A DNA stretch of 64,000 bases from Candidatus Onthoplasma sp. (GTDB lineage: Bacteria > Bacillota > Clostridia > Christensenellales > UBA1242): assembly GCA_045126575.1 (NCBI GenBank), contig JBGVOQ010000023.1, positions 17,382 through 81,381 on the forward strand, written 5' to 3'. The position numbers and the translations under genes are program-made. The notes beneath the pieces are model-generated. The model did no database searches, had not been told where the DNA came from, and worked only from the letters and a program-made list of their open reading frames with translations. Below, one piece after another: positions 44,179 through 58,824 of the stretch (within the stretch, counting starts at the first letter, position 1; every line of letters begins with the position of its first letter).

Positions 44179-45075
44179 TTAACCTTCTTTATCTTTTGCA
44201 TTTTTTAAAGCATTTAATCTCTTGTTCGATTTAATAACCATTAATACACCTAGCACTAGTATAATTGCACTAACACCTGCTCCAGTCAAAGCATTTGCAA
44301 ACCCTAAGTTATGCTCGGGCGAAAAAGCCTGAAACATTGCAACTTGTAACATTATGAATGAAATTAATGCACTTGCTAAATTTATGTTTCGTATATTTTC
44401 GATATACAAATCATCTTGTTTTCTTGCCTTAAAAATGTTAAATATTGCTAACGTTAATTTGTAAAATGTAAATGCTGCAACTGCATAAATTAAAATACCC
44501 GCATATTCAAAATAATGATTTGCTTTATAAATCAAAACAATAACTCCGGAAAATACGATTGTCATAATAACAAACATAATACCGCTAAATCTTAATGCTC
44601 TTGCCTGCTTTACTTCGGAGCCATATTTACGTTTTGAATAAAACACATTACCCTTCATAAATGCAAGAACCATATAGTAGGCTGTGATTGTAAAGTACCA
44701 CGCCGTTTTACTCATTATAGCCATAACTAAAATCAATGAAATATATGCCATGTTTATAATAAACGAAATCACGGCAAAAACAACCGTTCTGTAGCCATAA
44801 TCCTCAAGCACCTTATTGGTAAATTTATGGCTTTGTAAAAATCTAATTGTATTATTCTTTATTTTAGGAGCAAATATCACCATTGTATACACAAAGTACG
44901 TAAGCGCCAATGCTGCTAAAACATATAATAAATAATGTAATAATGTTTGCTTTGGGACAAGGATAACCAAAACTAAAGTACCGGCCGTTATTAGCGCAAA
45001 AAATACATAGAATAATGCAAGCCATATTCCATGTGGCGTTTTAATTTTGCTCCAAATGTTTTTAAAAAAATTCAT
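44179..45075 (-). CDS. Polytopic membrane protein, unknown function
   Basis: About 7-8 hydrophobic segments over 298 aa, with no recognisable motif. Confidence 0.6.
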   Translation of the reverse strand: MNFFKNIWSKIKTPHGIWLALFYVFFALITAGTLVLVILVPKQTLLHYLLYVLAALALTYFVYTMVIFAPKIKNNTIRFLQSHKFTNKVLEDYGYRTVVFAVISFIINMAYISLILVMAIMSKTAWYFTITAYYMVLAFMKGNVFYSKRKYGSEVKQARALRFSGIMFVIMTIVFSGVIVLIYKANHYFEYAGILIYAVAAFTFYKLTLAIFNIFKARKQDDLYIENIRNINLASALISFIMLQVAMFQAFSPEHNLGFANALTGAGVSAIILVLGVLMVIKSNKRLNALKNAKDKEG

Positions 45076-45281
45076 ACCACCACCTTTATACTATTATAAC
45101 ATATAATTATTATAAACTTATCATCAAATCTCAATTATTTTAATTATAAAACACATATTCATCAAAAAGTTCAATTATTTTAATTATAAGATATACATTC
45201 ATCAAGATGCTCAACACAAAAGCACAAACACATCTATTTAAACAATATAATAAAGCCCAGCCTATTGGCTGAGCCTATCAT

Positions 45282-45313
45282 TTGGTGGAGCAAGCATCCT
45301 CTATGTCGAAATT
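45282..45313. repeat. 32-bp direct repeat, copy 1 (TTGGTGGAGCAAGCATCCTCTATGTCGAAATT)
   Basis: Identical to copy 2 at 31 of 32 positions. The 16 nt at 45275-45290 (CTATCATTTGGTGGAG) match the tmRNA 3' end/flank junction at 55445-55460 in 15 of 16 positions. Confidence 0.8.
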
Positions 45314-45383
45314 TTTATAAATTCATCAAATATTGTTGACATTGTTTTTTTTATACTATATACTCACAATAAGGAGGGTTAAT

Positions 45384-45695
45384 ATGAAATCAGAGTTTAC
45401 AGGCGGACTGCTTGGTCTAATAGGTATTAATATTTTATCTTTTATTATAATTATTTTTACTTTAGGACTAGGTATTCCTTGGACAACATGTATATCGCAA
45501 AGATGGTATGCAAAACACACAATTATTGATGGCCAACAACTATATTTTGATGGAAAGGCTGTTCAACTTTTTGGTAATTATATTAAATGGCTTTTGCTTA
45601 CAATAATAACCTTAGGCATATATTCATTCTGGTTAGGAATAAAAATGCATAAATGGGTTGTTCTACACACTCATCATTCATCAAATGTTGCATAA
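45384..45695 (+). CDS. Small membrane protein, DUF898/YjgN-like
   Basis: The start MKSEFTGG has an AAGGAGG RBS. There are two TM hairpins around DGQQLYFDGKAVQLFGNYIKWLLLTIITLGIYSFW. It is flanked by the 32-bp repeats. Confidence 0.55.
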   Translation: MKSEFTGGLLGLIGINILSFIIIIFTLGLGIPWTTCISQRWYAKHTIIDGQQLYFDGKAVQLFGNYIKWLLLTIITLGIYSFWLGIKMHKWVVLHTHHSSNVA

Positions 45696-45757
45696 ATATA
45701 AAAAGAACACTTAATAGTGTTCTTTTTTCTAAATCGTGGGTGCGATTTAGCTTTGGA

Positions 45758-45789
45758 TTGGTGGAGCAAGCATCGTCTATGTCGAAATT
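45758..45789. repeat. 32-bp direct repeat, copy 2 (TTGGTGGAGCAAGCATCGTCTATGTCGAAATT)
   Basis: See copy 1. Its upstream flank TTAGCT-5 nt-TTGGTGGAG also mirrors the tmRNA flank TTAGCTATCAGTTGGTGGAG. Confidence 0.8.
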
Positions 45790-45791
45790 CC

Positions 45792-46586
45792 TTACGATAT
45801 AAATTGTTGCTTAAAGCAATTAAAATCCTTTAACAATCTTTCATCAAGATATTGCAATGCTTGTGTTTTTATTCCTTCTGGAATTCCATAATATGCTTCT
45901 GCAATAGCACCAATTATGGCACATAATGTATCAGAATCACCACCAATAGATATTCCCGTTCTTATAGCATCTTCAAAATCATTACTTATCAAAAAACAAT
46001 AAATTGCTTGTGGTACTGTTTCTTGACAGGTTTCATTAAACCTATAATTTTCTTTTAAATCATTATAGTCGTAATCCAAACTATAATAATTGTTCTCTAT
46101 ATAATCTTTAATTTCTTCTTTACTATATTTATGTAATGCCAGCCATATTGCAATAGCAGTTGATTCTGCACCTTTTATCCCTTCTGGATGATTGTGAGAT
46201 ACACTTGTTACTTTATATACTAATTCTTTTAATTCATCAATAGAATGTGAATAATACGCAACAGGACTAACACTCATTGCCGAACCATTACCATAAGAAT
46301 TATAGGGTTTTGGATTTTTAGTAATCAACCAAGTCCCAAAAGAATTGCCATAACTCATATTAGGATATATCTTTCCATACTCTTGCTTAAATTTAATTAT
46401 ATAATCAGATAATTTTTTATATTTGCCCTTACATTTTTCCAATGCTCTAAATGTAGCAAAAGTCATCACACTATCATCTGTAAAAAAACATCTTGGATAT
46501 GTTGAAAAGAATGGGAAATCTTTTGTTCTTATATTATCAAATTCGTATATTGAACCAACAATATCCCCAATAACAGCACCTAACAT
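45792..46586 (-). CDS. ADP-ribosylglycohydrolase family protein
   Basis: N-terminal MLGAVIGDIVGSIYEF, FTDDSVMT, and C-terminal GGDSDTLCAIIGAIAEAYYG are ARH hallmark blocks. Confidence 0.85.
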   Translation of the reverse strand: MLGAVIGDIVGSIYEFDNIRTKDFPFFSTYPRCFFTDDSVMTFATFRALEKCKGKYKKLSDYIIKFKQEYGKIYPNMSYGNSFGTWLITKNPKPYNSYGNGSAMSVSPVAYYSHSIDELKELVYKVTSVSHNHPEGIKGAESTAIAIWLALHKYSKEEIKDYIENNYYSLDYDYNDLKENYRFNETCQETVPQAIYCFLISNDFEDAIRTGISIGGDSDTLCAIIGAIAEAYYGIPEGIKTQALQYLDERLLKDFNCFKQQFIS

Positions 46587-46930
46587 AACTCTAAATACCT
46601 TTTAATTACACTTTCAAGTGTTCCATCATCTATACACCTTGCTATTAAACCATCACAAAAGCGTTCGCCTCTAAAAATTCTTGTTGTATATGTCTTTAAT
46701 TCATCTTTTGTTAAATCTTTTATATTCTTATTTTGTATTAGTTTAAAGTTTTCAAGATAATTATAATCTTCTCCTATAATTTTATGACATTCCATTATCT
46801 TACTATCATAATCATACCAACCAATACTATTACTCTCTTGCGAAGGAATATATTTATATGCCTTTTTGCTTTGTATAATTGATAATATCTCTATTAATTT
46901 ATCCTTATTTGATATTTGAATTTCTTTCAC
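46580..46930 (-). CDS. Small protein, possibly DUF6508-like (ARH/macro-associated)
   Basis: It overlaps the ARH start by 7 nt. The C-terminal RFCDGLIARCIDDGTLESVIKRYLEL recalls DUF6508. The assignment is from memory only. Confidence 0.45.
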   Translation of the reverse strand: MKEIQISNKDKLIEILSIIQSKKAYKYIPSQESNSIGWYDYDSKIMECHKIIGEDYNYLENFKLIQNKNIKDLTKDELKTYTTRIFRGERFCDGLIARCIDDGTLESVIKRYLELC

Positions 46931-46950
46931 AAATTCCTCCTATTACGCTG

Positions 46951-48399
46951 TTAGACATTAAGTGATTGCTCTCTATCATAAGCCTCTTGTATAAAAATAT
47001 TATTAGTTTCATTAGTAATATTTCTATGTTCCATACAATAATCCACTGACGCTGTAAATCGTTCTCTCACTTTTTCTTCTGCTTGTTCCTTTGTCAATCC
47101 TCTAGCCATATATACATTTTTTAATGCTTGACCAAAACTCTTCTTTGATATATGGGTTGGATTTAATCTTAAATCAGCCCATTCAACCATTTCATCATTA
47201 AATTCTAAATTTGTTTCAGTCCAATGCAAGTTCATTTCAACTGTTTGAGGCATTTGCTCAATCAATTGTTCATCAGAGTAGTTTTTTAGTACATGAATAA
47301 TTTGTTCTTTGTTTAATTTTAGTATGTCTACAACATCTTTTGCATTACTATTACTAGAATTATTTGCTATATCTAATAATAAATATCTTTGAACTAAAGG
47401 TAATATCTTAGACTCCATCCTTAATGGTTTTAAACTTTCCTTTTCATTCTCAACCTCAAGTTCTTGGCGAAGTTTTAATATTTTTTTAGTAACCTTTTTC
47501 GTAACAAATTCATTCCTAGATGCTATTCGTTGTTTTTTTTCTTCTCCTATCAGTCTAGGCAAATTAGATGTTTGTTTTGACTTTTGTATAATCATGCTAA
47601 TGACGGAACTTGGATCTACGCTTGCTGTTTTACCAAATATTTTCCCAACATCCTCAAATTCAATAAAAGCATTATGATAAGTAGATTCTTCCTGTTCAGT
47701 TGATTTTGCATCCCAACAAGGATCAGAATAAAATATTCCATCAATACCATATAATTCATCGTGAATTTCAACATTACAGTTCTGATGATTATCGCTTAAA
47801 TTATTTTCACCTTTATCATTTGTAATACAGTGCTGTGCTTCACATTTTATACCAACTCTTTTACATATTTCAGATAGTAAATTTGCATAACCGACACAAA
47901 CAATATTATTAGAGTTTAACACTCCTATTAATTCTCTTGAAAAACCCTTATCAAGCCCATCTTCAACCTCATGAAAAACATAACTTGTTACAATTTGATA
48001 GGCATATAAATATTTTTCAAAAGGACTTAATTCTCTACCATTTACTTGTGCATTATTTATTTCTTGAGTCCAATTCTCTAATTGATTACTTGCATTTATA
48101 GCTTTATCTACACTCCATAGGTCAGCACTTCTAGCTCCATCATCAAATAAGGTTTGAGCCCCATATTTACTTTTGATATGATCGTTGCCTTGTTGTAGCT
48201 TAATACTATTCTGTTGAGTTAATTCAAAATCAGTGGTATTAATAAGAATTGTTGTGTTAGGATGTAGATTATAAATTTTATCTAAAATATCTATATTGTA
48301 ATTGTCAAATGTTATTGATAAATTAATATGTTCATCCGCAGAAGCCTGTTTTAATTGTTCCCAAGTATCATCCATTACTTTGTAGCATTTTATATCCAT
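46951..48399 (-). CDS. Transglutaminase-like cysteine-protease-fold protein with long helical C-terminal extension
   Basis: Core Cys in IVCVGYANLLSEICKRVGIKC, His in NHQNCNVEIH and Asp in FYSDPCWD, in the C-H-D order and spacing typical of the transglutaminase-like superfamily. Confidence 0.55.
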   Translation of the reverse strand: MDIKCYKVMDDTWEQLKQASADEHINLSITFDNYNIDILDKIYNLHPNTTILINTTDFELTQQNSIKLQQGNDHIKSKYGAQTLFDDGARSADLWSVDKAINASNQLENWTQEINNAQVNGRELSPFEKYLYAYQIVTSYVFHEVEDGLDKGFSRELIGVLNSNNIVCVGYANLLSEICKRVGIKCEAQHCITNDKGENNLSDNHQNCNVEIHDELYGIDGIFYSDPCWDAKSTEQEESTYHNAFIEFEDVGKIFGKTASVDPSSVISMIIQKSKQTSNLPRLIGEEKKQRIASRNEFVTKKVTKKILKLRQELEVENEKESLKPLRMESKILPLVQRYLLLDIANNSSNSNAKDVVDILKLNKEQIIHVLKNYSDEQLIEQMPQTVEMNLHWTETNLEFNDEMVEWADLRLNPTHISKKSFGQALKNVYMARGLTKEQAEEKVRERFTASVDYCMEHRNITNETNNIFIQEAYDREQSLNV

Positions 48400-48442
48400 T
48401 TTAAGCTATTTCCTTTGTAATAATATTTTAATTAAACCATTT

Positions 48443-48916
48443 TTAAAATGTAGGCAATCCATCATCTTTATCTTCATAAGAAATCCAAAGTGAATGTCTA
48501 TCTGAATAGTATCTTAATAATTGTTTGTGTAGTTTTCTAATGTACCAAATTATAGGGTAGATTTCTGAACCATCAATTTCTTGATTTTCATTAATAGTTC
48601 CAATGCCATCATAGAAATCAACAATATCACAACTTGCTTTTAATAAGAGTTTATCAAACTTATCACTTGAAATATCCTCAACACCGTCAAATTTTGACAA
48701 GTTATTATACAACCTCGCCAACGCCTTCTCTTGATATTCACTTATTTGTTTAAGATTAGGTAAATTTGCATTATTTACATAATTCATAAAACACTCCATA
48801 TGAGCCCATACAGTTTCAATTTTATAATGTGGATGTATGTTTGGTCCAACATACAAGTCCAAAGGACATCTATTTAACAATTCAATTATTTTTTTACGAC
48901 TTATTTTCTTTTCCAT
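48443..48916 (-). CDS. Hypothetical protein (157 aa)
   Basis: ORF with an RBS, in an operon context. No recognisable motif. Confidence 0.5.
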   Translation of the reverse strand: MEKKISRKKIIELLNRCPLDLYVGPNIHPHYKIETVWAHMECFMNYVNNANLPNLKQISEYQEKALARLYNNLSKFDGVEDISSDKFDKLLLKASCDIVDFYDGIGTINENQEIDGSEIYPIIWYIRKLHKQLLRYYSDRHSLWISYEDKDDGLPTF

Positions 48917-48936
48917 GTTATTTCCCTCAATATATA

Positions 48937-49827
48937 CTATATCAAATTTAATCGTTCATAAAACTCTCTAACTTTTCTTGTAATTTGGTTGGCTTCTATT
49001 TGTGTAGGTGCAAATATTTCTTTGTGTTGTAAAAACTCAACCTTTATGTTATCTGATTTAACAGGTGTGTAAATTGACACCATTCGTTCTAACAATTCAA
49101 TGGTATTTATCATTACTTTCCTTAACATTGGATGTAATTTAGCAAATGTATTCACTGCCATCATTATTATAGGATATATTTCTATTTTCTTAAACATCTC
49201 CTTAGGAATTAGCAAAATAATATTAGGACCAAAATTTCTTACATAAAATTCAATATTATTCATATCTTGAAGTTCTGGAGCTTGAATATCATTATCAGCA
49301 CCTTCGTTGCTGATGGTAAATTTTAATTCTTTTCCATCAGAATTAATTATTTTTCTTTCTTTTATTTTGTATCCATTTCCCAACGGATAATGATTAACCG
49401 CACAATATATACCAAAATCATCTTTTTTAGAGAGTCTATTAATTCGAGTATATCCATTGCTTATTAGATTTCCTTTATTATCAACAAGATATTCTAGGTC
49501 TGTTCCTTTAAGTTTTGCAATACATCTATTAAACATATTAAACCCACCAGAATATCCAAATATTAAATTAGGAAACTCTGTTATTTTACCTTGATTATTA
49601 ACGATAGCCGAATATGTGATATCCATAAATAAATCTTCATTATAAACAACATGATTTCCACTATCAGATAAAATTATTTCATCATATAAATGTTCTGTGA
49701 TAAACTCGCTCGTTTCTTTATTAAATATTGCAGATTTCCTATTTTTCTTAACAACAATTAAATCTTCTGCTCTCATTTCATATCCATCATCTATAATGTT
49801 CTTTTCCTTATCAATAGATTTATCCAT
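48937..49827 (-). CDS. Hypothetical protein with WG-repeat-like N-terminal half
   Basis: It has repeated segments of the type ..N..G..I...YD.I (AIFNKETSEFITEHLYDEI; VDNKGNLISNGYTRINRL). It is the first gene of a minus-strand operon. Confidence 0.45.
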   Translation of the reverse strand: MDKSIDKEKNIIDDGYEMRAEDLIVVKKNRKSAIFNKETSEFITEHLYDEIILSDSGNHVVYNEDLFMDITYSAIVNNQGKITEFPNLIFGYSGGFNMFNRCIAKLKGTDLEYLVDNKGNLISNGYTRINRLSKKDDFGIYCAVNHYPLGNGYKIKERKIINSDGKELKFTISNEGADNDIQAPELQDMNNIEFYVRNFGPNIILLIPKEMFKKIEIYPIIMMAVNTFAKLHPMLRKVMINTIELLERMVSIYTPVKSDNIKVEFLQHKEIFAPTQIEANQITRKVREFYERLNLI

Positions 49828-49975
49828 AATCTTCTCCTTTACTTATCTTATTTCTGGTTTATAATTTCAGTATAACATACTTTTTTATGTTTTGTATCAT
49901 TATTTCTTTAATTAATTGACTTTTTAAAAAGATTTTATTATGATATGATTATATAATATAAAGGAGGAAATTAAT

Positions 49976-50692
49976 ATGCAACAAATGGCTTTTCAACTAT
50001 TAAGAGAAAAAGGTCGTTTTAATTTTAAAGATTTATTTTCAATTTGTTTAGGTAAAGTATTTTCCAACAAAATTGAATTAGATGAATATATTGGACATTA
50101 TAGCAGATGGGATACTGATGTAACCAAAGGAGAATTATTATGTGATAATAAAAAATTTAATGTTCAATATATCGGAACATCATCAAAACAAGATAATATG
50201 TGGTTTTCAGCAGAACTAGAAAAACAAATTCCTGATAAATATGTAAATTTAACAATACAAGTTCGGAACTTATTGCAATCTTTAAATCTAACCAATCTAG
50301 CACAACCTAAAATTCCGCTTAACAATATCATTACAGATGAAAAGTTGGCAATAATATATACAGCTTTCTTAACTGATGAAAAAACAACATATTATATTGG
50401 CAATTCAGGAGATATTAAAATATTTATGTTTGTTAAGGATTTTGATGGCGAAAATGTAATTTCAACACTAACTCAACCAATCGGTTCACATAAATTCATA
50501 CCTAGAGTACAAGAAATGTTATCGACTTATGATGTGGACCATAAACTTTGCATCAAATCATTCCTAATTCACAATCGTTGTAGATATCAAGAATTACCTA
50601 ATAAGATTATTGGAACTTTCGGTGATAAATCCATAAGTTTTGAATTTGATAACAATGGATATCTAACTAGTATGTCTGGTGTGCTTAACTAA
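49976..50692 (+). CDS. Hypothetical protein (possibly DUF6882-like)
   Basis: Strong AAGGAGG RBS. WDTDVTKGELLCDNKKFNVQYIGTSSKQDNMWF recalls DUF6882. Memory only. Confidence 0.5.
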   Translation: MQQMAFQLLREKGRFNFKDLFSICLGKVFSNKIELDEYIGHYSRWDTDVTKGELLCDNKKFNVQYIGTSSKQDNMWFSAELEKQIPDKYVNLTIQVRNLLQSLNLTNLAQPKIPLNNIITDEKLAIIYTAFLTDEKTTYYIGNSGDIKIFMFVKDFDGENVISTLTQPIGSHKFIPRVQEMLSTYDVDHKLCIKSFLIHNRCRYQELPNKIIGTFGDKSISFEFDNNGYLTSMSGVLN

Positions 50693-50701
50693 AAAAAATA
50701 A

Positions 50702-50735
50702 ATTCCCACTATGTAAGTGGGGATTTTTATTTTTT
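50702..50735 (+). terminator. Rho-independent terminator
   Basis: Stem ATTCCCACT pairs with AGTGGGGAT (one G-U pair), the loop is ATGTA, and TTTTATTTTTT follows. Confidence 0.6.
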
Positions 50736-50755
50736 AATTAAATTTGGCACTAAAA

Positions 50756-50810
50756 CGTGTGCTTGTCTTGATACAAGTGGCGTCGCTTCGCTCCGCCAGA
50801 CAAGCACACG
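50756..50810 (+). promoter_or_regulatory. Candidate double-strand origin hairpin with pC194/phiX174-type nick motif
   Basis: Perfect 13-bp stem CGTGTGCTTGTCT (50756-50768) pairs with AGACAAGCACACG (50798-50810). CTTGATA lies at 50767-50773, at the stem-loop junction. The GC-rich loop forms a secondary stem (GGCGTCGC/GCTCCGCC). Confidence 0.5.
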
Positions 50811-50833
50811 CAAAAAACTTAACCAAATAAAAT

Positions 50834-50900
50834 AAAACGGAACAAAATGGGGTTCGCACGCAAGCTTTCTGCGAATCCCCATTTTTTATTGTTCCGTTTT
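50834..50900 (+). other. Long imperfect hairpin (candidate single-strand origin or terminator)
   Basis: AAAACGGAACAA-AATGGGG-TTCGCA ... TGCGAA-TCCCCAT-(TTTTTA)-TTGTTCCGTTTT. About 25 paired positions. Confidence 0.4.
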
Positions 50901-50937
50901 ACATATTTTCAATGGTTCATAAAAAACATGGACTTTT

Positions 50938-51104
50938 TTTCATTTAGACCACGTACTTTTATCATTCTCGTGGTTTTTATATATAGAGGTATATAAAATT
51001 TTATATCTCCACAAAACAATCTAAATGTAAAAATTTTTAACAAATTTTCATTTAGGGGGTCCCTTTTTGCCATTCTCGTGCCTTATATATGAAGGGCATA
51101 TAAA
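50938..51104 (+). repeat. Two roughly 60-bp imperfect direct repeats, 108 bp apart (iteron-like)
   Basis: Both units read TTTCATTTAG-15 nt-CATTCTCGTG-..TTATATAT..(A/G)GG.ATATAAA. Unit A spans 50938-50998 and unit B spans 51046-51104. Confidence 0.6.
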
Positions 51105-51414
51105 TGATACATTGATGATGTATTAAGAAACAAAGTTCCTATATAAAGGATACACAAATGTTGTGGTAATACTAAAACATTTATGATATTTATTAAATAT
51201 CTCTCAAAACAAACAATCGCTTTGGGTTTTGTTTGGGAAAACTTTGGAAATTGTACAGGTAAAGTTCCTTCTATTTCTCGATAATTTGTGATATTAATAA
51301 AGCATATCTCAAACTCTTGTCAATAACTTGGCAACAAACTCTCAATAAAATGGCAAGTAATGTCATGGTTTTTGAAATATGACCTGTAATACAATTTAAA
51401 CAAGGAGGTTAACA

Positions 51415-51549
51415 ATGAAAGTTAAATTTAAAAATCAACATAATACTGATGTTTTAGATAAAGATTTTTATCTATTGCTTTTTAACAACATTGTTAATCT
51501 TAAAAAGGAGGCGGACAATGAATTATGCTCAAACAAAAGTGTACAATGA
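51415..51549 (+). CDS. Possible 44-aa ORF overlapping the Rep start
   Basis: AAGGAGG RBS 6 nt upstream. It reads MKVKFKNQHNTDVLDKDFYLLLFNNIVNLKKEADNELCSNKSVQ. It is below the ORF-track cutoff, and no homology is recognised. Confidence 0.3.
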   Translation: MKVKFKNQHNTDVLDKDFYLLLFNNIVNLKKEADNELCSNKSVQ

Positions 51550-52387
51550 TGGCAGTCATTTTATAGGCATACCTAAAACTACTCAGCCATGGAAAAAGAA
51601 AAAGTCTAAATCTAACAATCAATCAAAAGAAAAAGAGATATTTGAACAAACATACAAAGAAAGCAATAACAAAACAAAGAAAGAAAAGATTGAAAATATA
51701 AGTAAAGTATTAGAACCACATTTTAAAGATAAGAAAGAACTCGATGAATTTATAAAAGAAAATATGGATAGGAAGAAAAGGAATTTAATAGTAAGAAGAA
51801 ATAGATTATCTAAAAAGATTAATTTACATAAATGGCATTACTTTTGCACTTTTACCTATGATGACAAATTGCATACAGAAGAAAATTTTAGAAAATCACT
51901 ATCTAACACATTAAAGCATTTATCAAATCGTAAAGGTTGGAGATATATAGGTGTATGGGAGCGAAGTCCTACAAATAACAGGTTACACTTTCACGGATTA
52001 TTCTATACCCCTATTATGATTGGTGAGTTTGAAGAAATTAAAGATTATTCAACCAAGAAACACGAAATGCAGATTGCTAATCAAAATACTTACTTTTTAA
52101 AAAGATTTGGAAGAAATGATTTTAAGTATATTGTAGGTAGCCAACATATAGACGAGTCTAAAAACTATCTTATGAAATACCTTGAAAAATCTGGTGAAAG
52201 AATTGTATATAGCAGAGGCCTATATACTTACTTTGTATCAGATATATTGGAAGATGACATAGTTTGCACCATAGGACAAGAAGATAGAAAGATACTTTTA
52301 TTCGATAACTTTAATTGCTTAATTGATGGCGAAGTGATTGGACAAGTCAGTCAAGAAATAATAGATAAAATGCCAAAAACAAATTAA
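51518..52387 (+). CDS. Rolling-circle replication initiator (HUH endonuclease superfamily Rep)
   Basis: The start MNYAQTK has an AAGGAGG RBS. Motif I is HYFCTFTYD, motif II (HUH) is RLHFHGLFY, and motif III (catalytic Tyr) is NYLMKYLEK. Confidence 0.75.
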   Translation: MNYAQTKVYNDGSHFIGIPKTTQPWKKKKSKSNNQSKEKEIFEQTYKESNNKTKKEKIENISKVLEPHFKDKKELDEFIKENMDRKKRNLIVRRNRLSKKINLHKWHYFCTFTYDDKLHTEENFRKSLSNTLKHLSNRKGWRYIGVWERSPTNNRLHFHGLFYTPIMIGEFEEIKDYSTKKHEMQIANQNTYFLKRFGRNDFKYIVGSQHIDESKNYLMKYLEKSGERIVYSRGLYTYFVSDILEDDIVCTIGQEDRKILLFDNFNCLIDGEVIGQVSQEIIDKMPKTN

Positions 52388-52535
52388 TTTGTCTTTCGCT
52401 AGTCGGTTTAAACGAAAACTCTTTTAAGTCAAGGGTAAAGTGCATTGATTCTCAACCCTTGACTTAAAAACAAAAACTTAAAACTAAAATATCAAAATCC
52501 CTTTTCGTTTCTGCCGATTGTTGTCGAAAGACAAA
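52388..52535. repeat. Nested inverted-repeat structure between rep and the recombinase gene
   Basis: Outer 11-bp perfect IR: TTTGTCTTTCG (52388-52398) with CGAAAGACAAA (52525-52535). Middle IR: AAACGAAAA (52410-52418) with TTTTCGTTT (52502-52510). Inner 13-bp perfect IR: TTAAGTCAAGGGT (52424-52436) with ACCCTTGACTTAA (52455-52467), separated by 18 nt. Confidence 0.75.
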
Positions 52536-52563
52536 AATATATATAAATTAAAAGGAGTTAAAT

Positions 52564-54024
52564 ATGAAAACAGCAGTTATATATGCTAGATATAGCAGTG
52601 ATAACCAAACTGAACAAAGTATTGAAGGGCAATTAAGAGTTTGTCAAGATTATGCACAAAGAAATGACATAGTTATTCTTAACACATACATTGACCGAGC
52701 AATGACAGGTACTAATGATAATAGACCAGATTTTCAACAAATGATTAAAGATAGTTATAACAAGGAATGGAATTATGTGTTGGTATATAAACTTGATAGA
52801 TTTAGTAGAGATAGATACGAAACATCTATCCACAAACACACATTACAACAAAATGGTGTAAAACTTATTTCAGCTATGGAAAATATACCAGATACGCCAG
52901 AAGGAATTATTCTAGAAGCATTAATTGAAGGAATGAATCAATATTATTCAGCAGAACTTGCACAAAAGATTAAAAGAGGCATGAAAGAAACTCGCCTAAA
53001 AGGACTTTACCAAGGCGGTGGCTTACCTTATGGTTATAAAGTTCAAGATAGAAAAATTATGCTTAATGAATTAGAATATAGAAATGTTCAATTCATGTTT
53101 AATCAATATGCAAGAGGTTTTAGAGTAAAACACATTATTGAAACTTTAACAAGTCAAGGTGTTTTAAACAAAGGTAAACCATTTGAAGAAAATATTGTAT
53201 ATCGCATGTTAAGAAATGAAAAATATACAGGTGTATACAATCACAATGGGGAGATTATAGAAAACATGTACCCTCCTATCATTTCAAAAGAACTTTATGA
53301 AAAAGCACAAATAAGCATAAAAAACAATAGATATGGTAAAAGCAGTTTAACGACAAATTATTTACTAAAAGGTAAAATAAGATGTGGTTATTGTGGCAAT
53401 ACTATAAGTTCTGATTGTGGCACACTACGAAATGGAACATTGGTCCACTATTATAAATGTCGAGGAAAGAAACGGCATAAAATCAATTGTCCTAATAAAA
53501 GTATTAGAAAGGAACTTTTAGAGGAAATTATTATAACCAAAATAATCGAAGAATTACAAAAACCTAAAAATCTAAATATTGTTGTTGACAATGTTTTACA
53601 ACTACAAGATAATTGCATTGAAAACAATACTAAACTTAAATATTTAGAAAAAGAAATAAAGCACAAGCAATCTCAACTTAATAATATTATAAAAGCTATT
53701 GAATGCGGTGTTGTCAGCAAAACAACAGCATTAAGAGTTAAAGAACTTGAAACCCAAATTGAAGAACTTGATAAAGAAATCTTAATAGAACACAATACAC
53801 AATCATTTAGAATGTCAAGAGAAGAAATTGAAAGGTTTTATGCAGACGCTTTAAAACGAGAACCAATGTTATTGATAAACTATTTGATAAAAGAAATTAA
53901 ACTATATAACGATAAGCTTGAAATACAACTTAATAATCCAATAAAAAAGAGTCCAAATAACGATTTGGATTCTTCTTTTTTATTTAAAACTAAATTGTTT
54001 AAAGACATTGAGATATATGTATAG
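52564..54024 (+). CDS. Large serine recombinase
   Basis: N-terminal resolvase catalytic domain (AVIYARYSSDNQ...SIEGQ...DRFSRD), the recombinase domain, a zinc ribbon (CGYCGN...YYKCRGKK...CPN) and a C-terminal coiled coil. Size of 486 aa. Confidence 0.9.
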   Translation: MKTAVIYARYSSDNQTEQSIEGQLRVCQDYAQRNDIVILNTYIDRAMTGTNDNRPDFQQMIKDSYNKEWNYVLVYKLDRFSRDRYETSIHKHTLQQNGVKLISAMENIPDTPEGIILEALIEGMNQYYSAELAQKIKRGMKETRLKGLYQGGGLPYGYKVQDRKIMLNELEYRNVQFMFNQYARGFRVKHIIETLTSQGVLNKGKPFEENIVYRMLRNEKYTGVYNHNGEIIENMYPPIISKELYEKAQISIKNNRYGKSSLTTNYLLKGKIRCGYCGNTISSDCGTLRNGTLVHYYKCRGKKRHKINCPNKSIRKELLEEIIITKIIEELQKPKNLNIVVDNVLQLQDNCIENNTKLKYLEKEIKHKQSQLNNIIKAIECGVVSKTTALRVKELETQIEELDKEILIEHNTQSFRMSREEIERFYADALKREPMLLINYLIKEIKLYNDKLEIQLNNPIKKSPNNDLDSSFLFKTKLFKDIEIYV

Positions 54025-54203
54025 TGGCTATTTATTCCACGGTGTCCTTGACACGAGGCTCTTTGAAATGGTTGTTTTAGGGCATGCGGTCAAGGGAAAG
54101 AAGTTGCAAGCAACTATCTTCCTTGCCCTTGGCAACAAGCCTAAACCATTTCATCTCATGTCAAGCACCTTTCGCGGCATAAACCGCCACATAAAAATTT
54201 ATA

Positions 54204-55070
54204 TTACAAATTATTTGCATCCACATCAAAACCAACAGCCTTCATATTTTTAACCAATTTATTTCTCCATCCACCTTCTTCACCATCGTAATTATTGTAC
54301 ACAACACCTATTATATCCGAAGGGACTTCAACTTCTCCTTGTTTTAATACAAAAACTTTATTTCTGCCCAACTTACCAAGAAAATAACCTAGTTCCATTA
54401 TAACATTTTGACGGGCTCTTAATTTTAATTCAACTTCTTGTTTAGCTTTGCCCAAATCATCATCACTTAACAAAATTATAGCATAAGAAGCTTTGCTTGC
54501 ATGTTCTTCAAATTTTTCTATAATAGTATTTCCACAATCCGCATTCTCATGCAAAATAATTGGATTAAATTTTAATTGAATAAGTGTTCTGGCAACAACT
54601 TGTTTTAACTCATTGTTATGACCATGAACAATAAATACATTTTCATTAATTGTAAGTTTTTCATCATTCTTCTCAGATTGTATTTTGTTTGTTTGTTTTC
54701 TTGTTGAGTTTGCATCAACAATAGAACATAGCTCAATAATGCTGAATACTTCCTGATTTAATTGAGAATTCATTTCATTTAAAATTTTTTGACTTTCGCT
54801 TTCTCCAAAATAGTTTCCAAAATTGTAGGGACCTTCTTTTTTAATTTGAGTATTATATTTTTCAACATTTTCATTTATTAAGTTATCTCTTTTTAAATAT
54901 TCAATTTCGATTGCTTTAATAAACGAATCTTCTACAAATGTTTTTTTAGCCATTTGTAGAATTTCTTTCACCCATAAAGAAATTCTAGATCTTCTATTAT
55001 TGAAATCCATATTTTTATTTGTGAGATTTAAGCCTGCAACTTTTATTGTGTCATAATCAAATTCTTTCAT
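54204..55070 (-). CDS. TIR-like nucleotide-binding protein (CAP12/PycTIR-type, COG4271-like) with unknown roughly 140-aa N-terminal domain
   Basis: The start MKEFDYD has an AAGGAG RBS. The C-terminal half reads VFIVHGHNNELKQVVARTL...GNTIIEKFEEH...AIILLSDDDLG...LRARQNVIMELGYFLGKLGRNKVFVL...VPSDIIGVVY. This matches the conserved blocks of that TIR-like family. Confidence 0.7.
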   Translation of the reverse strand: MKEFDYDTIKVAGLNLTNKNMDFNNRRSRISLWVKEILQMAKKTFVEDSFIKAIEIEYLKRDNLINENVEKYNTQIKKEGPYNFGNYFGESESQKILNEMNSQLNQEVFSIIELCSIVDANSTRKQTNKIQSEKNDEKLTINENVFIVHGHNNELKQVVARTLIQLKFNPIILHENADCGNTIIEKFEEHASKASYAIILLSDDDLGKAKQEVELKLRARQNVIMELGYFLGKLGRNKVFVLKQGEVEVPSDIIGVVYNNYDGEEGGWRNKLVKNMKAVGFDVDANNL

Positions 55071-55415
55071 AGCTTTCTCCTTTTGTAAAAATTTTCGCAA
55101 AACGCTTGCTCGACTACAAGAAATATGTTAATATACTACTAGGGATTAGTATAAAACATAAAATGGCTTTGCTAAATAAAATAACACTAGCACAAAAATA
55201 GGGCTAGTGCTATTTTTTAATAAAGTAATCTCCTTTATTAAACTTACTAGCACTACCCCTTTTTACCAGTATATTTTATCTATAAATGAGTGTATCAAAA
55301 AATTTCAAAAAAGTCAAACTATTTGAGGTGTTTGTAAAAATATCTCAATTCTAAAAATTTAGCAATTTTTTTGAAAATCAAATTTTGAAATTTGGAAATT
55401 TTAAGCGATAAACCA

Positions 55416-55448
55416 TTAAAAAATAGCCAAGTGATTCGACTTAGCTAT
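55416..55448 (-). terminator. Rho-independent terminator of tmRNA
   Basis: On the minus strand, ATAGCTAAGT-CGAATC-ACTTGGCTAT (10 bp, one G-U pair) is followed by TTTTTT. It starts 4 nt after the CCA end. Confidence 0.6.
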
Positions 55449-55452
55449 CAGT

Positions 55453-55794
55453 TGGTGGAGGTGATGGGAGTCGAACCCATGTCCATCATAAAATGTTATA
55501 CATACTCTACATACTTAGTTGAAGAATTGCTCTCACTCTGCCGAGGTGCTTCAACCACCTTGCAAAGCCAGCCTAAAATTACAATCCTATGTCCTAGGCA
55601 AAACATAAAATTGTTGACCGATAACCGACGCCAGACTTTGCCATATCGGTACTAGCAAACTGACGGTTGCGCTAACTAAGCTGCAACAGCAACTGTTCTG
55701 TTGTTATTTATTTAAAAAGTTTTGTGTACTTAACGTGCCACCGCACGATATGCATACCTATAACACCCTACAATGTCGAAACCATTACACCCCC
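55453..55794 (-). ncRNA. ssrA: tmRNA (SsrA)
   Basis: The minus strand starts GGGGGTGTAATGGTTTCGAC and ends GGGTTCGACTCCCATCACCTCCACCA. The acceptor stem has G3-U, there is a T-arm, and an internal tag ORF ends GTT GCT GTT GCA GCT TAG (..RTVAVAA*). It lies immediately downstream of smpB. Confidence 0.9.
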
Positions 55795-55949: not shown

Positions 55950-56396
55950 TTAATAAATTTCCCTGCTCATTCGGCGGTCAATATCCTTTTGTTTGATACT
56001 TTCACGCTTATCGTAGGTCTTTTTACCTTTTGCTTCGGCAATGGTAAGTTTTAAGTACGAGCCATCAAAATATGCCTTGATTGGCACAACGGTAAGCCCT
56101 TCCTGCTCAACCGCTTTTTGCAATTTTGCAATTTCAGTTTTGTGCAATAAAAGTTTTCGGTCCTTACGCTCATCCGCTTTTTTGCGACTGCCATCATAAG
56201 CATTAGAATATTGTTCAATATAAGCATTTTTAAGTAATACTTCGCCATGCTTAACACTAACAAAACTCTCCTTAATCGACATATGGCCTGCACGCACAGC
56301 CTTAATTTCATCACCCGTAAGCACAATACCTGCCTCGTACTTGTCTAGCAAGAAATACAAGTAACTTGCATTAGGATTATTACAAACTATCTTCAT
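55950..56396 (-). CDS. smpB: SsrA-binding protein SmpB
   Basis: The 148-aa sequence has A.N.KA...Y...d..EAGivL.G.EiKs.R-type blocks (NPNASYLYFLLDKYEAGIVLTGDEIKAVR). Its position between rnr and ssrA is the conserved one. Confidence 0.95.
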   Translation of the reverse strand: MKIVCNNPNASYLYFLLDKYEAGIVLTGDEIKAVRAGHMSIKESFVSVKHGEVLLKNAYIEQYSNAYDGSRKKADERKDRKLLLHKTEIAKLQKAVEQEGLTVVPIKAYFDGSYLKLTIAEAKGKKTYDKRESIKQKDIDRRMSREIY

Positions 56397-56544: not shown

Positions 56545-58824
56545 TTAATAATTGTAATCGTTATATTCCCTATCCTTACGTTTTTTTGATTTTTTCTTGT
56601 AAAAGTCAGGCTTTTTGTTAGAATGTTTAGTTTGTTTTTGTGTAGCAGACGACTTTTTGCCACGTACCATTTTTTCCTTATTAGATTTATCCTTTTGGCG
56701 GGCAATTTCTTCCAAACTTGATGGCTTAACCCTATCCGCTAATTCAAATTCGATACGTCTAGTGTGAGTATTTGCCGCCACCACCATAACTTGAACTTTA
56801 TCGCCAAGGCTATAACTGTGTTTACTTCCGCTTAGTTGAACTGCACGTGGGTCATAATCGTAGTTATCGATAGGTAGATTTTCAAACTTAATCATACCCT
56901 CAATGGTATTATCCAGTTCTACAAACACGCCAAATTCTTGAACACCTGAAATAACACCTTCGTATATCTCTCCAAGATATTGCTTCATATACAATGCTTT
57001 TTTGTAATCGTCAACTTCACGTTCTACTTCATCAGCACGTTTTTCGGTAAGGCTTGATTGCTCACTAGCCTTAGCCACAATTTCCTCAAAGTGAATACGG
57101 CTATCACGCGCCTTTTGACCATTTAATGCAGCCTTAATAATACGGTGAATCATAAGGTCTGGATAGCGCCTAATAGGTGAAGTAAAGTGGCAATAGAATG
57201 TGCTTGCAATACCAAAGTGACCTAAGCATTCTGGAGCGTAGCGCGCCTTCATCATTGTACGTAAAATAATCTTATTGATTGTATCTTTACGAGGGTCGTC
57301 ACCCAAATCGTCCAATATTTTTTGGAAGTCGCCCGGTTTGATATCCTTAGTATTAATTGATACATTTACGTGTAATGCTTTTAGCATATCTATTAGTTTT
57401 TCAACACGTTCAACTTCTGGCTTTTCGTGCACACGGTATACAAATGGATACTTTTTGCTGAAATATGTTTTAGCAATCACTTCGTTAGCAAGTATCATCA
57501 AACTTTCAATTAATTGATGACTTTCATCAATTGGCATTTTTTCAATCTTAGCAATAGAGCCATCTTCATTTTCGGTAATCACAGGTTCTGGAATATCAAA
57601 GCGGATTTCGCCACGGTCATAACGTTGTTGTTTTAATGTTTTGGATATAGTTACATAGTCCATAATATCTTGAGCCACATCACTATATTCTTCCAACAAC
57701 TCTTGGTCGCCCTCTATCATCTTTTGAACCTTTGTATATGTCATACGATGCTTACTAATAATCACGCCTTCACTTACACGACTGTTGAGCACCTTGCAAT
57801 TTTTATCAAGGTCGATAATTACACTTAAGGTTAATCTTTTCACACCTTCACGCAATGAGCATATACCATTAGACAGTTGTTCTGGAAGCATTGGAATTAC
57901 AAGGTCTGGGAAGTACACACTTGTTCCTCTTACATATGCCTCTTCATCAATAGCCGAACCTTCCTTAACATAATGAGTAACGTCGGCAATATGCACACCC
58001 AAACGATAGCCACCTTTTTCAATACGCTCTACCGAAATCGCATCGTCAAAGTCACGTGAATCTTCGCCATCAATGGTTATTGTGCGTAGGTCTGTAAAGT
58101 CTTCACGGCCTTGCAAATCCTTTGGTGTTACATTTTGCTTAATTTTAGCGGCTTCCTTAAGAGTTGATTCCTCAAATTTATCCTTAATCTTGTAACTACG
58201 AATAATTGCCAATTGTTCCGCTGCCACAGTTCCCGCCTTGCCCAACACTTCGGTAATCACACCATGCATTGAAAGGTTTTGGTCATCAAAAACTATCTTT
58301 GCTACCACTTTATCGCCATTATTGGCTCCCATAAGGTCTGGCTTAAATATTTTAACATTAGGAAATTTGTCATCATCACTATCTACCACTATACCATTTT
58401 TGCTAACATTAAGTGTACCAACAACATATTCCGTGTTGCGCTTAATAATATGAACAATTTCACCTTCTGGATTATAGTTATCAACATTTTGCACAATCTT
58501 AACCCAAACAACGTCACCATTAATTGCATTTAATGTAGCATGGCGTGGCACGAAAATATCTGCTAGACCGCTGTCATCTAAACGCTCTGAAAAAACAAAT
58601 CCTTTTTGATTGCCTCTAACCACACATTTCACATAACCACGCAAGGTTGGTACATAAATTTGCTGATTGGCATTTAGCAACAAATCGCCTTCCTGCAATA
58701 ATTCCTTAATCATCAACTTAGCGGTTTTGCGGTCCTTTAATGTAATCAAAGCCAATTCCTTACTAAGTTCTTCCATACTAAGATAAACAAGTTTATTATC
58801 CACAATTGTTTTTAAAATGTTCAT
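56545..58824 (-). CDS. rnr: Ribonuclease R
   Basis: I prefer the start MNILKT (GGGGAAG RBS). The RNB domain includes TIDGEDSRDFDDA, and there is a C-terminal S1 domain (GVISGVQEFGVFVEL) and a Lys-rich tail. Confidence 0.9.
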   Translation of the reverse strand: MNILKTIVDNKLVYLSMEELSKELALITLKDRKTAKLMIKELLQEGDLLLNANQQIYVPTLRGYVKCVVRGNQKGFVFSERLDDSGLADIFVPRHATLNAINGDVVWVKIVQNVDNYNPEGEIVHIIKRNTEYVVGTLNVSKNGIVVDSDDDKFPNVKIFKPDLMGANNGDKVVAKIVFDDQNLSMHGVITEVLGKAGTVAAEQLAIIRSYKIKDKFEESTLKEAAKIKQNVTPKDLQGREDFTDLRTITIDGEDSRDFDDAISVERIEKGGYRLGVHIADVTHYVKEGSAIDEEAYVRGTSVYFPDLVIPMLPEQLSNGICSLREGVKRLTLSVIIDLDKNCKVLNSRVSEGVIISKHRMTYTKVQKMIEGDQELLEEYSDVAQDIMDYVTISKTLKQQRYDRGEIRFDIPEPVITENEDGSIAKIEKMPIDESHQLIESLMILANEVIAKTYFSKKYPFVYRVHEKPEVERVEKLIDMLKALHVNVSINTKDIKPGDFQKILDDLGDDPRKDTINKIILRTMMKARYAPECLGHFGIASTFYCHFTSPIRRYPDLMIHRIIKAALNGQKARDSRIHFEEIVAKASEQSSLTEKRADEVEREVDDYKKALYMKQYLGEIYEGVISGVQEFGVFVELDNTIEGMIKFENLPIDNYDYDPRAVQLSGSKHSYSLGDKVQVMVVAANTHTRRIEFELADRVKPSSLEEIARQKDKSNKEKMVRGKKSSATQKQTKHSNKKPDFYKKKSKKRKDREYNDYNY

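Follow-up and report, generated by a model that had tools for sequence, protein, structure and literature searches.

The tmRNA gene (ssrA) in the window, the 64,000-nt stretch of Candidatus Onthoplasma DNA analysed here, ends in a sequence that recurs far downstream. The 16-mer CTATCAGTTGGTGGAG (55445-55460) has a single further copy, CTATCATTTGGTGGAG, at 45275-45290 (15/16), and a 32-bp unit is present in exactly two copies, at 45282-45313 and 45758-45789 (31/32 identical); shuffles of the window give 0.00 expected matches for each. An earlier note had read the 16-mers as att sites of an ssrA-targeted island bounded by a terminator-like hairpin at 45255-45274. The tmRNA 3′-end repeat is real and, by the shuffles, not a chance match, and a minus-strand hairpin is indeed found beside the distal copy (45276-45253), with another on the ssrA side (55449-55422). 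The features at the two ends are:

55453..55794, minus strand: ssrA, the tmRNA gene (ARAGORN; Rfam RF00023, 137 bits)
55445..55460, minus strand: attL core CTCCACCAACTGATAG, the same sequence as the empty-site attB
45275..45290, minus strand: attR core CTCCACCAAATGATAG, 15/16 identical to attL and attB
45249..45276, minus strand: displaced original ssrA terminator (B-right), GCTCAGCC-AATA-GGCTGGGC plus a T-rich tail (terminator scan), directly 3′ of ssrA in contigs L001 and L002

The latter two contigs, from the same species and matching the window at 96-97% identity in their flanks, have an empty site that reads ...CACCTCCACCAACTGATAG immediately followed by GCTCAGCCAATAGGCTGGGCTTTTTT. Both have the order ssrA, the 45255-45274 hairpin, the membrane-protein gene, cls and a rho-like gene, the arrangement that had been predicted beforehand for an empty-site comparison. 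Because this empty site is present in same-species contigs, the 10.17 kb between the repeats is inserted DNA; the 16-mers are confirmed as att sites of an ssrA-targeted island, as is the boundary at 45255-45274, where the hairpin is the original ssrA terminator. The 3′-terminal ...CACCTCCACCA of ssrA, with the T-loop box GGTTCGACTCC, constitutes B-left, the left half of attB. No clear motif was seen in B-right, the bacterial right half-site.

The 10.17 kb (45,28x-55,45x) very probably consists of two site-specific integrative elements arrayed in tandem and inserted where the tmRNA gene reaches its very 3′-end. One, element A, is autonomous and ~9.69 kb in length, with genes for a large serine recombinase (LSR), a rolling-circle Rep and a TIR protein as well as an ADP-ribosylglycohydrolase operon:

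55418..55452, minus strand: right arm of element A (P-right A), ACTGATAGCTAAGTCGAATCACTTGGCT then a T-run (terminator scan; family consensus), identical in contig L005
54204..55100, minus strand: TIR-domain protein gene, cargo (Pfam CAP12/Pycsar TIR, 5.5e-39; PADLOC candidate single-gene defence system PDC-S35, 1.5e-66)
54025..54195, no strand assigned: long imperfect hairpin of ~150 nt directly after the recombinase stop codon (z-scores -5.9 and -6.5)
52564..54024, plus strand: LSR, 486 aa (Pfam Resolvase, Recombinase and Zn-ribbon; PHROG integrase, 3.9e-107)
51491..52387, plus strand: rolling-circle Rep (Pfam REP_ORF2-G2P, 1.4e-10)
49976-50692, plus strand: DUF6882, cargo (Pfam, PHROG)
48937-49827, 48443-48916 and 46951-48399, all minus strand: unknown proteins, cargo
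46580-46930, minus strand: DUF6508, cargo (Pfam, PHROG)
45792-46586, minus strand: ADP-ribosylglycohydrolase (ARH), cargo (Pfam, PHROG)
45758..45789, minus strand: left arm of element A (P-left A), AATTTCGACATAGACGATGCTTGCTCCACCAA, copy 2 of the 32-bp unit

The LSR is full length: none of its three domains is missing and it retains each of the residues invariant among 25 homologues. By sequence only its catalytic domain matches any solved structure; we infer that it is the integrase of element A. The earlier note had recorded the absence of a tyrosine integrase, and no Phage_integrase domain was detected by Pfam among the scanned island ORFs. No recombination directionality factor was identified in the element. 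The TIR gene lies between the recombinase gene and attL, the cargo block 45792..50692 is missing from the empty-site contigs, and P-left A directly abuts the ARH stop codon. P-right A, with the family motif CTAAGTCGAA at +9 after CCA, doubles as a replacement terminator hairpin for ssrA (terminator scan, 55449-55422). The ~150-nt hairpin is conserved in two other loci (L103 and L104) with five compensatory pairs, has no Rfam match, and is a candidate replication origin, single-strand origin or non-coding RNA.

The other member of the array is a 476-bp mini-element:

45729..45757, minus strand: type-B right arm (P-right B), TCCAAAGCTAAATCGCACCCACGATTTAG, with a hairpin at 45729-45750; an identical arm lies directly on ssrA in contigs L003, L004 and L101
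45700-45727, plus strand: the mini-element's own terminator (terminator scan)
45384-45695, plus strand: DUF898-like small membrane-protein gene (Pfam DUF898, 3.9e-13)
45336-45364, plus strand: near-consensus promoter (promoter scan)
45314..45728, plus strand: mini-element body, with a 98.8% identical copy in L101
45282..45313, minus strand: left arm of the mini-element, copy 1 of the 32-bp unit

P-right B and P-left A together form an attP-like inner junction, which supports the proposal in the earlier note that CTCCACCAA carries a tandem pair of related elements, of which one is a 476-bp stub. The resemblance noted there between the flank of the second 32-bp copy and that of the tmRNA gene is also real, both being element-side right arms of one family; these arms, AGCTAAATCG and AGCTAAGTCG, lie at an equal distance from CCA. 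The mini-element has both arms but no recombinase and is similar to a cis-mobilizable element (CIME), the name for deletion derivatives that retain att sites; it would thus presumably depend for movement on a recombinase provided in trans. CIMEs are, however, defined for integrative and conjugative elements with a tyrosine integrase.

Occupancy of the ssrA site varies among contigs of the species. L005 has element A at the site, L003 and L004 carry a type-B element, and L101, a 683-bp contig that is the only one of its kind, has the mini-element alone. In L101 the mini-element is 98.8% identical to that in the window whereas the adjoining ssrA is only 89% identical, suggesting recent horizontal movement of the unit, with the caveat that L101 could be a chimeric assembly joined via a 38-nt shared arm. 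In a related species, ssrA holds elements of types C and D in tandem in L104, a second, independent array that also backs the tandem reading, and type D alone in L109.

The arms themselves are short. Their conservation ends sharply at ~29-32 bp, as expected for LSR att sites, and attP(A), attP(C) and the inner junction share one CC as their best dyad centre (13/24, 14/24 and 12/24, respectively), a CC that is also included in the identity blocks of five junction pairs. Over all possible centres this symmetry is modest, with shuffle frequencies of ~0.10, 0.16 and 0.015 for attP(A), the inner junction and attP(C), respectively. With the centre taken from dyad symmetry and the overlap of the identity blocks, the crossover dinucleotide is probably the CC at 55457-55458, tRNA positions 71-72. 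The T-loop box TTCGAC is 5 bp closer to this centre in the ssrA half-site than in P-left and P-right A, and a 5-bp shift of the zinc-ribbon motif toward the centre in attB relative to attP is a feature of the published LSR model, which the arm geometry, judged from the sequence, appears to match (PMC3783163). In some relatives (L032, L047 and L058), the left-arm box seems shifted by 4 rather than 5 bp.

The recombinase belongs to a large clade from gut Clostridia whose members usually adjoin a tRNA-type gene at its 3′-end. Homologues of the LSR (52-59% identical) were surveyed at 80 genomic loci, and at 49 of these a tRNA gene is located 50-1130 bp beyond the LSR stop codon, convergent in every case (49/49), and many different tRNAs are represented. 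The conserved arm AAACCTAAATCGAAC is at a fixed distance after CCA in 44 of these 49, with [CG]TAAnn[CT]GA exactly 9 nt after CCA in 44/49 versus 3/60 of the other tRNAs in the same loci. The three exceptions also look like junctions. At 11 further loci a CCA-ended fragment is followed by the same arm, and both element-side right arms in the window fit the register of the clade. Searches of the viral and JGI metagenome collections yielded no match to the left-arm pattern. A Rep homologue is encoded just upstream of the recombinase gene in 55/80 loci, and also in L102, L103 and L104; Rep and recombinase are a conserved two-gene module.

In the mechanism that we propose, the LSR would have recombined an attP of ~55-60 bp, comprising the left arm TTTCGAC-N16-CC and the right arm ACCA-N8-CTAAGTCGAA, with an attB consisting of the last ~25 nt of ssrA and the terminator flank. 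The zinc-ribbon domain would read the T-loop box and the crossover would occur within the last 7 nt of ssrA, most likely at the CC. The right arm of element A restores the ACCA end of ssrA and brings a new terminator hairpin, with the old terminator now 10 kb away. The excised circle may replicate by a rolling-circle mechanism. The mini-element may have been on ssrA before element A arrived or have come afterwards. Recombination of attP with attL or attR is not carried out by canonical LSRs; a tandem array must therefore have arisen under relaxed rules, with the help of an accessory factor or in some other way.

An explanation of the repeats by coincidence, or as a dispersed intergenic repeat with no tie to ssrA, has a negligible probability: nothing was found in its favour, neither repeat has further copies in the 64 kb, and the shuffle expectation of 0.00 and an empty site exactly at the repeat boundaries refute it. 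A second alternative is a classical ssrA island made by a tyrosine integrase: most islands in t(m)RNA genes use tyrosine integrases, and t(m)RNA-gene sites are used by 44.5% of tyrosine but 4.9% of serine integrases (PMC7192596). The tyrosine integrase would have been lost or have acted in trans and the LSR would be a passenger, such as the resolvase of a Rep replicon; a 15/16 direct repeat exceeds what a serine integrase needs, and the TIR gene intervenes between the recombinase gene and attL. We consider this very unlikely, as the scanned island ORFs have no Phage_integrase domain, arm conservation stops at ~30 bp with no long attP arms carrying arm-type sites, and the clade is tied to tRNA 3′-ends, with a fixed-register arm in 44/49, as a passenger would not be. 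Some HUH proteins mediate site-specific integration, and the retention of Rep beside the recombinase in 55/80 loci would fit an HUH Rep that integrated the element by strand transfer at a nick site. The junctions are, however, conservative reciprocal products with both arms kept and the core shared, the dyad-symmetric arms and 5-bp register shift fit the serine-integrase model, and some loci with the conserved arm have no detectable Rep, making integration by Rep highly improbable.

It is less easily dismissed, if still unlikely, that the 476-bp unit is a dead remnant left by internal deletion of a full-length type-B element, in a fixed array with nothing mobile. The unit lacks a recombinase, it shares its right arm with the larger type-B element of L003 and L004 but diverges immediately beyond the arm, and canonical serine integrases cannot use hybrid sites. 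Against this, both arms are intact (the left arm 31/32 identical to that of element A), the higher identity of the unit than of ssrA in L101 suggests recent horizontal movement (subject to the assembly caveat), and occupancy varies within the species. The earlier note had left a choice between an immobilised island and involvement of the serine recombinase. Involvement of the recombinase is favoured because the LSR is intact, its clade lies beside tRNA 3′-ends with a conserved arm and site occupancy is variable, and a tyrosine integrase need not be invoked; no support was found for immobilisation.

LSR islands at ssrA are already known from Dehalococcoides, whereas targeting of tRNA ends across a clade was not described in the literature examined. 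As here, the Dehalococcoides ssrA islands with DsiB form tandem arrays (McMurdie et al. 2011, PMC3146451), have an LSR next to attL, the likeness to DsiB being drawn from its description, and are interspersed with integrase-less units read as cis-mobilizable. They belong, however, to another phylum, have a six-gene integration module that includes a second, small serine recombinase (DsiA) rather than a single LSR and a rolling-circle Rep, and have a 20-bp rather than a 16-bp repeat; their insertion point was inferred to be in the T-loop whereas the crossover here is placed in the last 7 nt (acceptor end/CCA), and the present clade mostly adjoins ordinary tRNA genes. In composite SCCmec-type arrays (CcrAB serine recombinases) and CIMEs with accretion, a non-autonomous unit with functional-looking att sites at its ends similarly lies in tandem with an autonomous element at a single chromosomal site (PMC3146451), but the putatively mobilizable mini-element has merely 476 bp and one small gene. 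In 2020, the targeting of t(m)RNA genes by large serine integrases was described as unreported until then and as still requiring proof (PMC7192596). Tyrosine-integrase islands and prophages at tRNA and tmRNA 3′-ends share the ssrA 3′-end target (Williams 2002; Islander, PMC4383910), and in them too the element restores the gene end, a displaced fragment marks the far boundary and tandem arrays are common (PMC4383910), but their recombinases are of an unrelated family and their attP arms are long, in contrast to the ~30-bp dyad-symmetric arms here. The integrase of the Listeria phage A118 family (LI) has the same order of Resolvase, Recombinase and Zn-ribbon domains (Rutherford et al. 2013, PMC3783163). 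Its att sites are likewise short and imperfectly symmetric, with the outer zinc-ribbon motif 5 bp nearer the centre in attB, a motif assignment that for the window is deduced from sequence, but its target is a protein-coding gene rather than the end of an RNA gene.

Very probably, the 3′ end of ssrA in the window carries two insertions in tandem: an element of the large serine recombinase (LSR) type, designated element A, and a 476-bp unit, designated the mini-element. The gene order, taken from Pfam, PADLOC and PHROG scans, is as follows.

56545-58863, minus: rnr
55950-56396, minus: smpB
55453-55794, minus: ssrA, the tmRNA gene (ARAGORN; Rfam RF00023, 137 bits)
54204-55100, minus: TIR-domain protein (PADLOC candidate defence system PDC-S35, 1.5e-66)
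52564-54024, plus: LSR (Resolvase, Recombinase and Zn ribbon domains)
51491-52387, plus: rolling-circle Rep (REP_ORF2-G2P)
49976-50692, plus: DUF6882 protein
48937-49827, 48443-48916 and 46951-48399, minus: three proteins without a family match (Pfam matched none of the island proteins of 482, 296 and 157 aa)
46580-46930, minus: DUF6508 protein
45792-46586, minus: ADP-ribosylglycohydrolase (ARH)
45758-45789, minus: second copy of the 32-bp unit
45384-45695, plus: DUF898-like membrane protein, 103 aa
45282-45313, minus: first copy of the 32-bp unit
45253-45276, minus: terminator hairpin
44179-45075, minus: membrane protein
42590-44158, minus: cls
41045-42346, minus: rho-like gene

The 16-mer CTATCAGTTGGTGGAG at the ssrA end (55445-55460) is nearly matched at only one other place in the window, by CTATCATTTGGTGGAG at 45275-45290, and the 32-bp unit is present in exactly two copies that are identical at 31/32 positions; in both cases shuffles give an expectation of 0.00. 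A simple terminator scan places hairpins on the minus strand at 45276-45253 and 55449-55422 and another one at 45729-45750. The earlier note had described the repeat, the 32-bp unit and the hairpin and, on re-examination, all of its sequence statements proved correct. It had also predicted, and proposed as a check, an empty site at which ssrA would run straight into the 45255-45274 hairpin. Same-species metagenome contigs were retrieved by exact look-up of the SmpB protein, and two of these (L001 and L002, with flanks 96-97% identical to the window) have the order rnr, smpB, ssrA, membrane protein, cls, rho and the junction ...CATCACCTCCACCAACTGATAG joined to GCTCAGCCAATAGGCTGGGCTTTTTT, with that hairpin directly after ssrA. 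The 10.17 kb between the repeats is therefore an insertion, and the 45255-45274 hairpin is the original ssrA terminator.

Set against the window junctions, these empty sites show that the insertion was exact and took place at a defined attB. In the ssrA direction, the junctions are ...CACCTCCACCA followed by ACTGATAGCTAAGTCGAATCACTTGGCTATTTTTT at attL, ...AATTTCGACATAGACGATGCTTGCTCCACCA followed by ATCCAAAGCTAAATCGCACCCACGATTTAG at the inner junction between element A and the mini-element, and ...AATTTCGACATAGAGGATGCTTGCTCCACCA followed by AATGATAGGCTCAGCC... at attR. The 32-bp unit is therefore the left arm of the element (P-left), and the two sequences that follow CCA are two versions of its right arm, P-right A and P-right B. 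As in islands recognized by Islander, the insertion is in the 3′ part of ssrA, the gene end is restored by the element, so that ssrA retains an intact full-length match to the tmRNA model with attL reading ...CTCCACCA, and a displaced fragment, CTCCACCAA at 45282-45290, lies at the far end. The Islander pattern also includes a tyrosine integrase; none, and no Phage_integrase domain, was found by Pfam in the scanned island ORFs. The G+C content is 25-30% in the island and 30-38% in the flanks, too weak a contrast for drawing boundaries. Across the island, Rfam at a relaxed threshold gave, apart from the tmRNA, matches only to isrJ (E = 0.9), which overlaps attR, and to U6 (E = 0.35); both are treated as chance.

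Three small features were noted around the gene and its old terminator. A 40-nt tandem repeat (...ATAATTAAAATAATTGAACTTTTTGATGAATA...) lies between that terminator and the membrane-protein gene (~45105-45215), with two copies in the window and L002 and three in L001 (3690-3810). The outer 9-mer of the left arm, TTTCGACAT (45304-45312 and 45780-45788), equals a 9-mer in the tmRNA 5′ domain (GGTTTCGACATTG, 55773-55781, minus strand), probably a coincidence on top of a shared TTCGAC box. For the ssrA tag peptide ARAGORN gives no more than AVAA*; the immediately preceding sequence, AATAACAACAGAACAGTTGCTGTTGCAGCTTAG, points to a longer tag with the ending ...VAVAA, and the resume codon is probably miscalled by ARAGORN.

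The array thus reads ssrA, element A (9,694 bp between cores), the 476-bp unit and then chromosome, an order that is obtained whichever of the two was inserted first. The mini-element has a single DUF898 gene flanked by a left arm of 32 bp and a type-B right arm of 29 bp and, like a cis-mobilizable element (CIME), is bounded by att sites of an autonomous family while having no recombination or transfer genes. Two contigs, L005 and L006, match the window at 100% identity and share its sample of origin. P-right B is not confined to the window: in L003 and L004 it lies directly on the same ssrA and starts another element, and in L101 it lies on ssrA and is followed by the DUF898 gene. The last case suggests that the small unit is able to occupy the ssrA site alone, and its 98.8% identity to the window, versus only 89% for the adjoining ssrA, points to horizontal movement; L101 is only 683 bp long, however, and may be a chimera joined at the shared arm of 38 nt. 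The mini-element may move by means of the machinery of element A.

An independent second tandem array at ssrA, of element types C and D, is present in L104, from a related species with flanks 72-81% identical and SmpB in the same 90% cluster. Here ssrA is joined to CTCTGAGCCACGGTCGAAATGCCGTGGTTTTTT, followed by a PDC-M34B-like candidate defence gene, an LSR with 58% and a Rep with 54% identity, and ~8.9 kb further is the junction of TTTTTCGACGGACGTTTAACTTGCTCCACCA with TATTCCGTCTAAATCAAACC; that last right arm lies directly on ssrA in L109, from that related species. Canonical serine integrases do not use hybrid sites, and tandem arrays would therefore need relaxed rules, an accessory factor or another route. 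A further array may be present in L080, where a far repeat of a tRNA-Leu 3′ end at ~1034 is followed by family-arm-like sequence, GCATAGTCGAACC.

The combination of a REP_ORF2-G2P Rep with a size of 9.7 kb led us to consider a filamentous prophage as the identity of element A, but nothing else in the gene content supports this. By exact-protein look-up, the ARH was found in the same sample only and the TIR protein gave no record. In both ssrA-targeting elements the slot between attL and the LSR gene holds a candidate defence gene (the TIR gene in the window; 11172-12128 in L104) that runs in the ssrA direction, just past the replacement terminator. An imperfect hairpin of ~150 nt, with a G+C content above that of its surroundings, starts right past the LSR stop codon (54025-54195); it has z-scores of -5.9 and -6.5, one per strand, is conserved in L102, L103 and L104 with five compensatory pairs, and had no Rfam match. 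It could serve the rolling-circle Rep as its single-strand or double-strand origin; alternatively, it could be an uncharacterized RNA.

By far the most likely integrase of element A, judged from sequence comparison, is the 486-aa LSR. Its domains are, in order, PF00239 (1e-28), PF07508 (2.1e-15) and PF13408 (3.2e-13), and it carries every column invariant across 25 homologues, including R9 and S11, with the YARYSS serine motif intact; a sequence search of solved structures matched its catalytic domain only. Homologues with 55-60% identity number in the thousands, mostly in gut Clostridia and Christensenellaceae-type metagenome-assembled genomes. In a scan of species-representative genomes, at least 599 stretches matched the search patterns, 597 encode a relative, and 80 loci were examined. 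A tRNA gene lies 50-1130 bp past the LSR stop codon in 49 of the 80, without exception encoded on the other strand and pointing its 3′ end towards the LSR gene, and contig ends truncate many of the other loci. The adjacent tRNAs are Gln, Glu, Met, Leu, Ser, Arg, Lys, Ile and Ala. When flanks were aligned on the CCA end, [CG]TAAnn[CT]GA was found exactly 9 nt past CCA in 44 of the 49 tRNA-adjacent loci, within an arm of consensus AAACCTAAATCGAAC from +5 to +19, after which a hairpin closes and a T-run follows. Only 3 of 60 other tRNAs in the same loci have this motif, and those three resemble att junctions; in 11 loci without a called tRNA, a CCA-ended fragment (GGTGCACCA, GGCGCGCCA or alike) is followed by the family arm. 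The window right arms, with CTAAGTCGAA and CTAAATCGCA at +9, fit this register, and a Rep homologue is encoded just upstream of the LSR gene in 55/80 loci. Given this clade-wide tRNA adjacency, fixed-register arm and Rep pairing, the window contains a member of a widespread Rep-LSR family of integrative elements, here targeting the tmRNA gene. The involvement of the serine recombinase, which the earlier note had raised as an alternative, is thus favoured.

Few far boundaries of the related loci could be mapped: of 39 tRNA-adjacent loci, only 6 have a perfect far-end repeat of 12 nt or more within 10 kb, and two of these (L082 and L055) look like chance. The left-arm pattern CGACATAGASGATGCTTGCTCCACCAA had 0 matches both in viral contigs and in JGI metagenome contigs, and neither a free attP nor any further copy was therefore found there. 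Thirteen viral contigs encode an LSR relative; 12 of these (36-60% identity) have no tRNA past the recombinase gene. The viral contig L007 (57%) has no adjacent tRNA and has an attP-like junction with the family arm. In L058 (7786-7900) and L047 (6385-6500), the family right arm follows a tRNA-Lys upstream of the recombinase gene, and an inverted second copy follows GGTGCACCA downstream of it (~11708 and ~10222, respectively). The core of these two loci, TGGTGCACCA, is a perfect palindrome, and either integration in both orientations or inversion of the segment seems possible.

Where strands are exchanged can be narrowed from the identity blocks. That shared by attL and attR, CTCCACCAA(C/A)TGATAG, comprises 8 nt of the ssrA end and 8 nt of flank, and its C/A mismatch was considered as a crossover marker that would place the exchange in TGATAG, downstream of the gene. 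This was dropped, as the block common to the type-B junctions extends no further than CTCCACCAA, and the mismatch is then more readily accounted for by a strain polymorphism in the bacterial right half-site. The blocks of four relatives with a plausible far-end repeat (L029, L061, L080 and L091) and the type-B block of the window share an overlap in the final 7 nt of the RNA gene, where the crossover would therefore lie. The predicted attP(A) circle junction after excision is AATTTCGACATAGACGATGCTTGCTCCACCAACTGATAGCTAAGTCGAATCACTTGGCT, the putative 50-bp attB at the ssrA end is GGGTTCGACTCCCATCACCTCCACCAACTGATAGGCTCAGCCAATAGG, and the restored junctions would be ssrA joined to the type-B arm and ssrA joined to GCTCAGCC.

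Conservation of the arms stops at 29-32 bp. A dyad scan found the same best centre, the CC of CTCC/ACCA (tRNA positions 71-72), in three P-type sites, with 13/24 complementary pairs in the reconstructed attP(A), 14/24 in attP(C) of L104 and 12/24 in the inner junction. With every centre scanned, shuffles reach these counts at frequencies of ~0.10, ~0.015 and ~0.16, respectively, and the modest values mean that the dyad argument rests on the agreement of the three sites and not on any single one. TTCGAC is present at outward positions 17-22 in the left arms of element A, the mini-element and type C, with inverted GTCGAA equally far out in right arm A, and at outward positions 12-17 in the ssrA half-site, where it belongs to the T-loop of the tmRNA gene. 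In attB the outer motif is thus 5 bp nearer the centre than it is in attP, a comparison that holds for the left half-site only, as the bacterial right half-site has no motif; in L032, L047 and L058, the left-arm shift looks like 4 bp. A 5-bp shift of the zinc-ribbon-domain motif between attP and attB is established for the Listeria LI integrase (PMC3783163).

These features can be joined in a tentative reading, to which we give somewhat less than an even chance, of an LSR clade of gut Clostridia specialised on tRNA-type genes. Its thousands of members, usually paired with a rolling-circle Rep, would use the zinc-ribbon domain to read the universal T-loop box GTTCGA of such genes as the outer attB motif, and crossover would be at the acceptor end, beside the encoded CCA. 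The element would mimic the T-loop box in both attP arms, copied 5 bp further out, and its conserved right arm would double as a new terminator in place of the one displaced from the RNA gene. Non-autonomous mini-cassettes could share these sites. If true, any tRNA or tmRNA gene that encodes CCA would be a potential landing site reachable by a few base changes, which would explain why so many different tRNAs are targets although the proteins diverge by only 40-48%.

The finding is real, and the interpretation first placed on the repeats is supported. Together with the 80 related loci, this locus provides comparative evidence for an LSR clade usually located next to tRNA-type gene ends, and suggests a rule, read from sequence, of T-loop box as outer motif, 5-bp shift and crossover at the acceptor or CCA end. 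Locally, there is a defence-gene slot beside the att site and a single-gene unit of 476 bp that may share machinery; the wider pattern would be clade-wide targeting of tRNA-type gene ends with a fixed-register arm and a T-loop recognition rule. Serine integrases serve as genome-engineering tools, and a family directed at a landing site that is both safe and universally conserved could therefore be useful.

The ends of tRNA and tmRNA genes are considered the territory of tyrosine integrases. In a genome-wide survey of 2020, 14 of 297 serine-integrase islands were at t(m)RNA genes, and such use was described as unreported and needing proof (PMC7192596), and a large LSR catalogue of 2022 makes no mention of tRNA (PMC10083194). 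The later island-database papers that were read single out no such LSR clade, and a description in other papers is possible. The closest parallel is the ssrA-GI of Dehalococcoides, in which tandem ssrA islands with an LSR are accompanied by integrase-less units (PMC3146451); tandem ssrA arrays with integrase-less units are likewise found in the window and, with types C and D, in L104. The Dehalococcoides module, however, has six genes, with DsiB and a small second serine recombinase, DsiA (PMC3146451), whereas the window island has one Resolvase-domain ORF with Rep as its partner. Insertion in Dehalococcoides is in the T-loop of ssrA, with a 20-bp repeat (PMC3146451), whereas in the window it involves the last 8 nt of the gene and 8 nt of flank.
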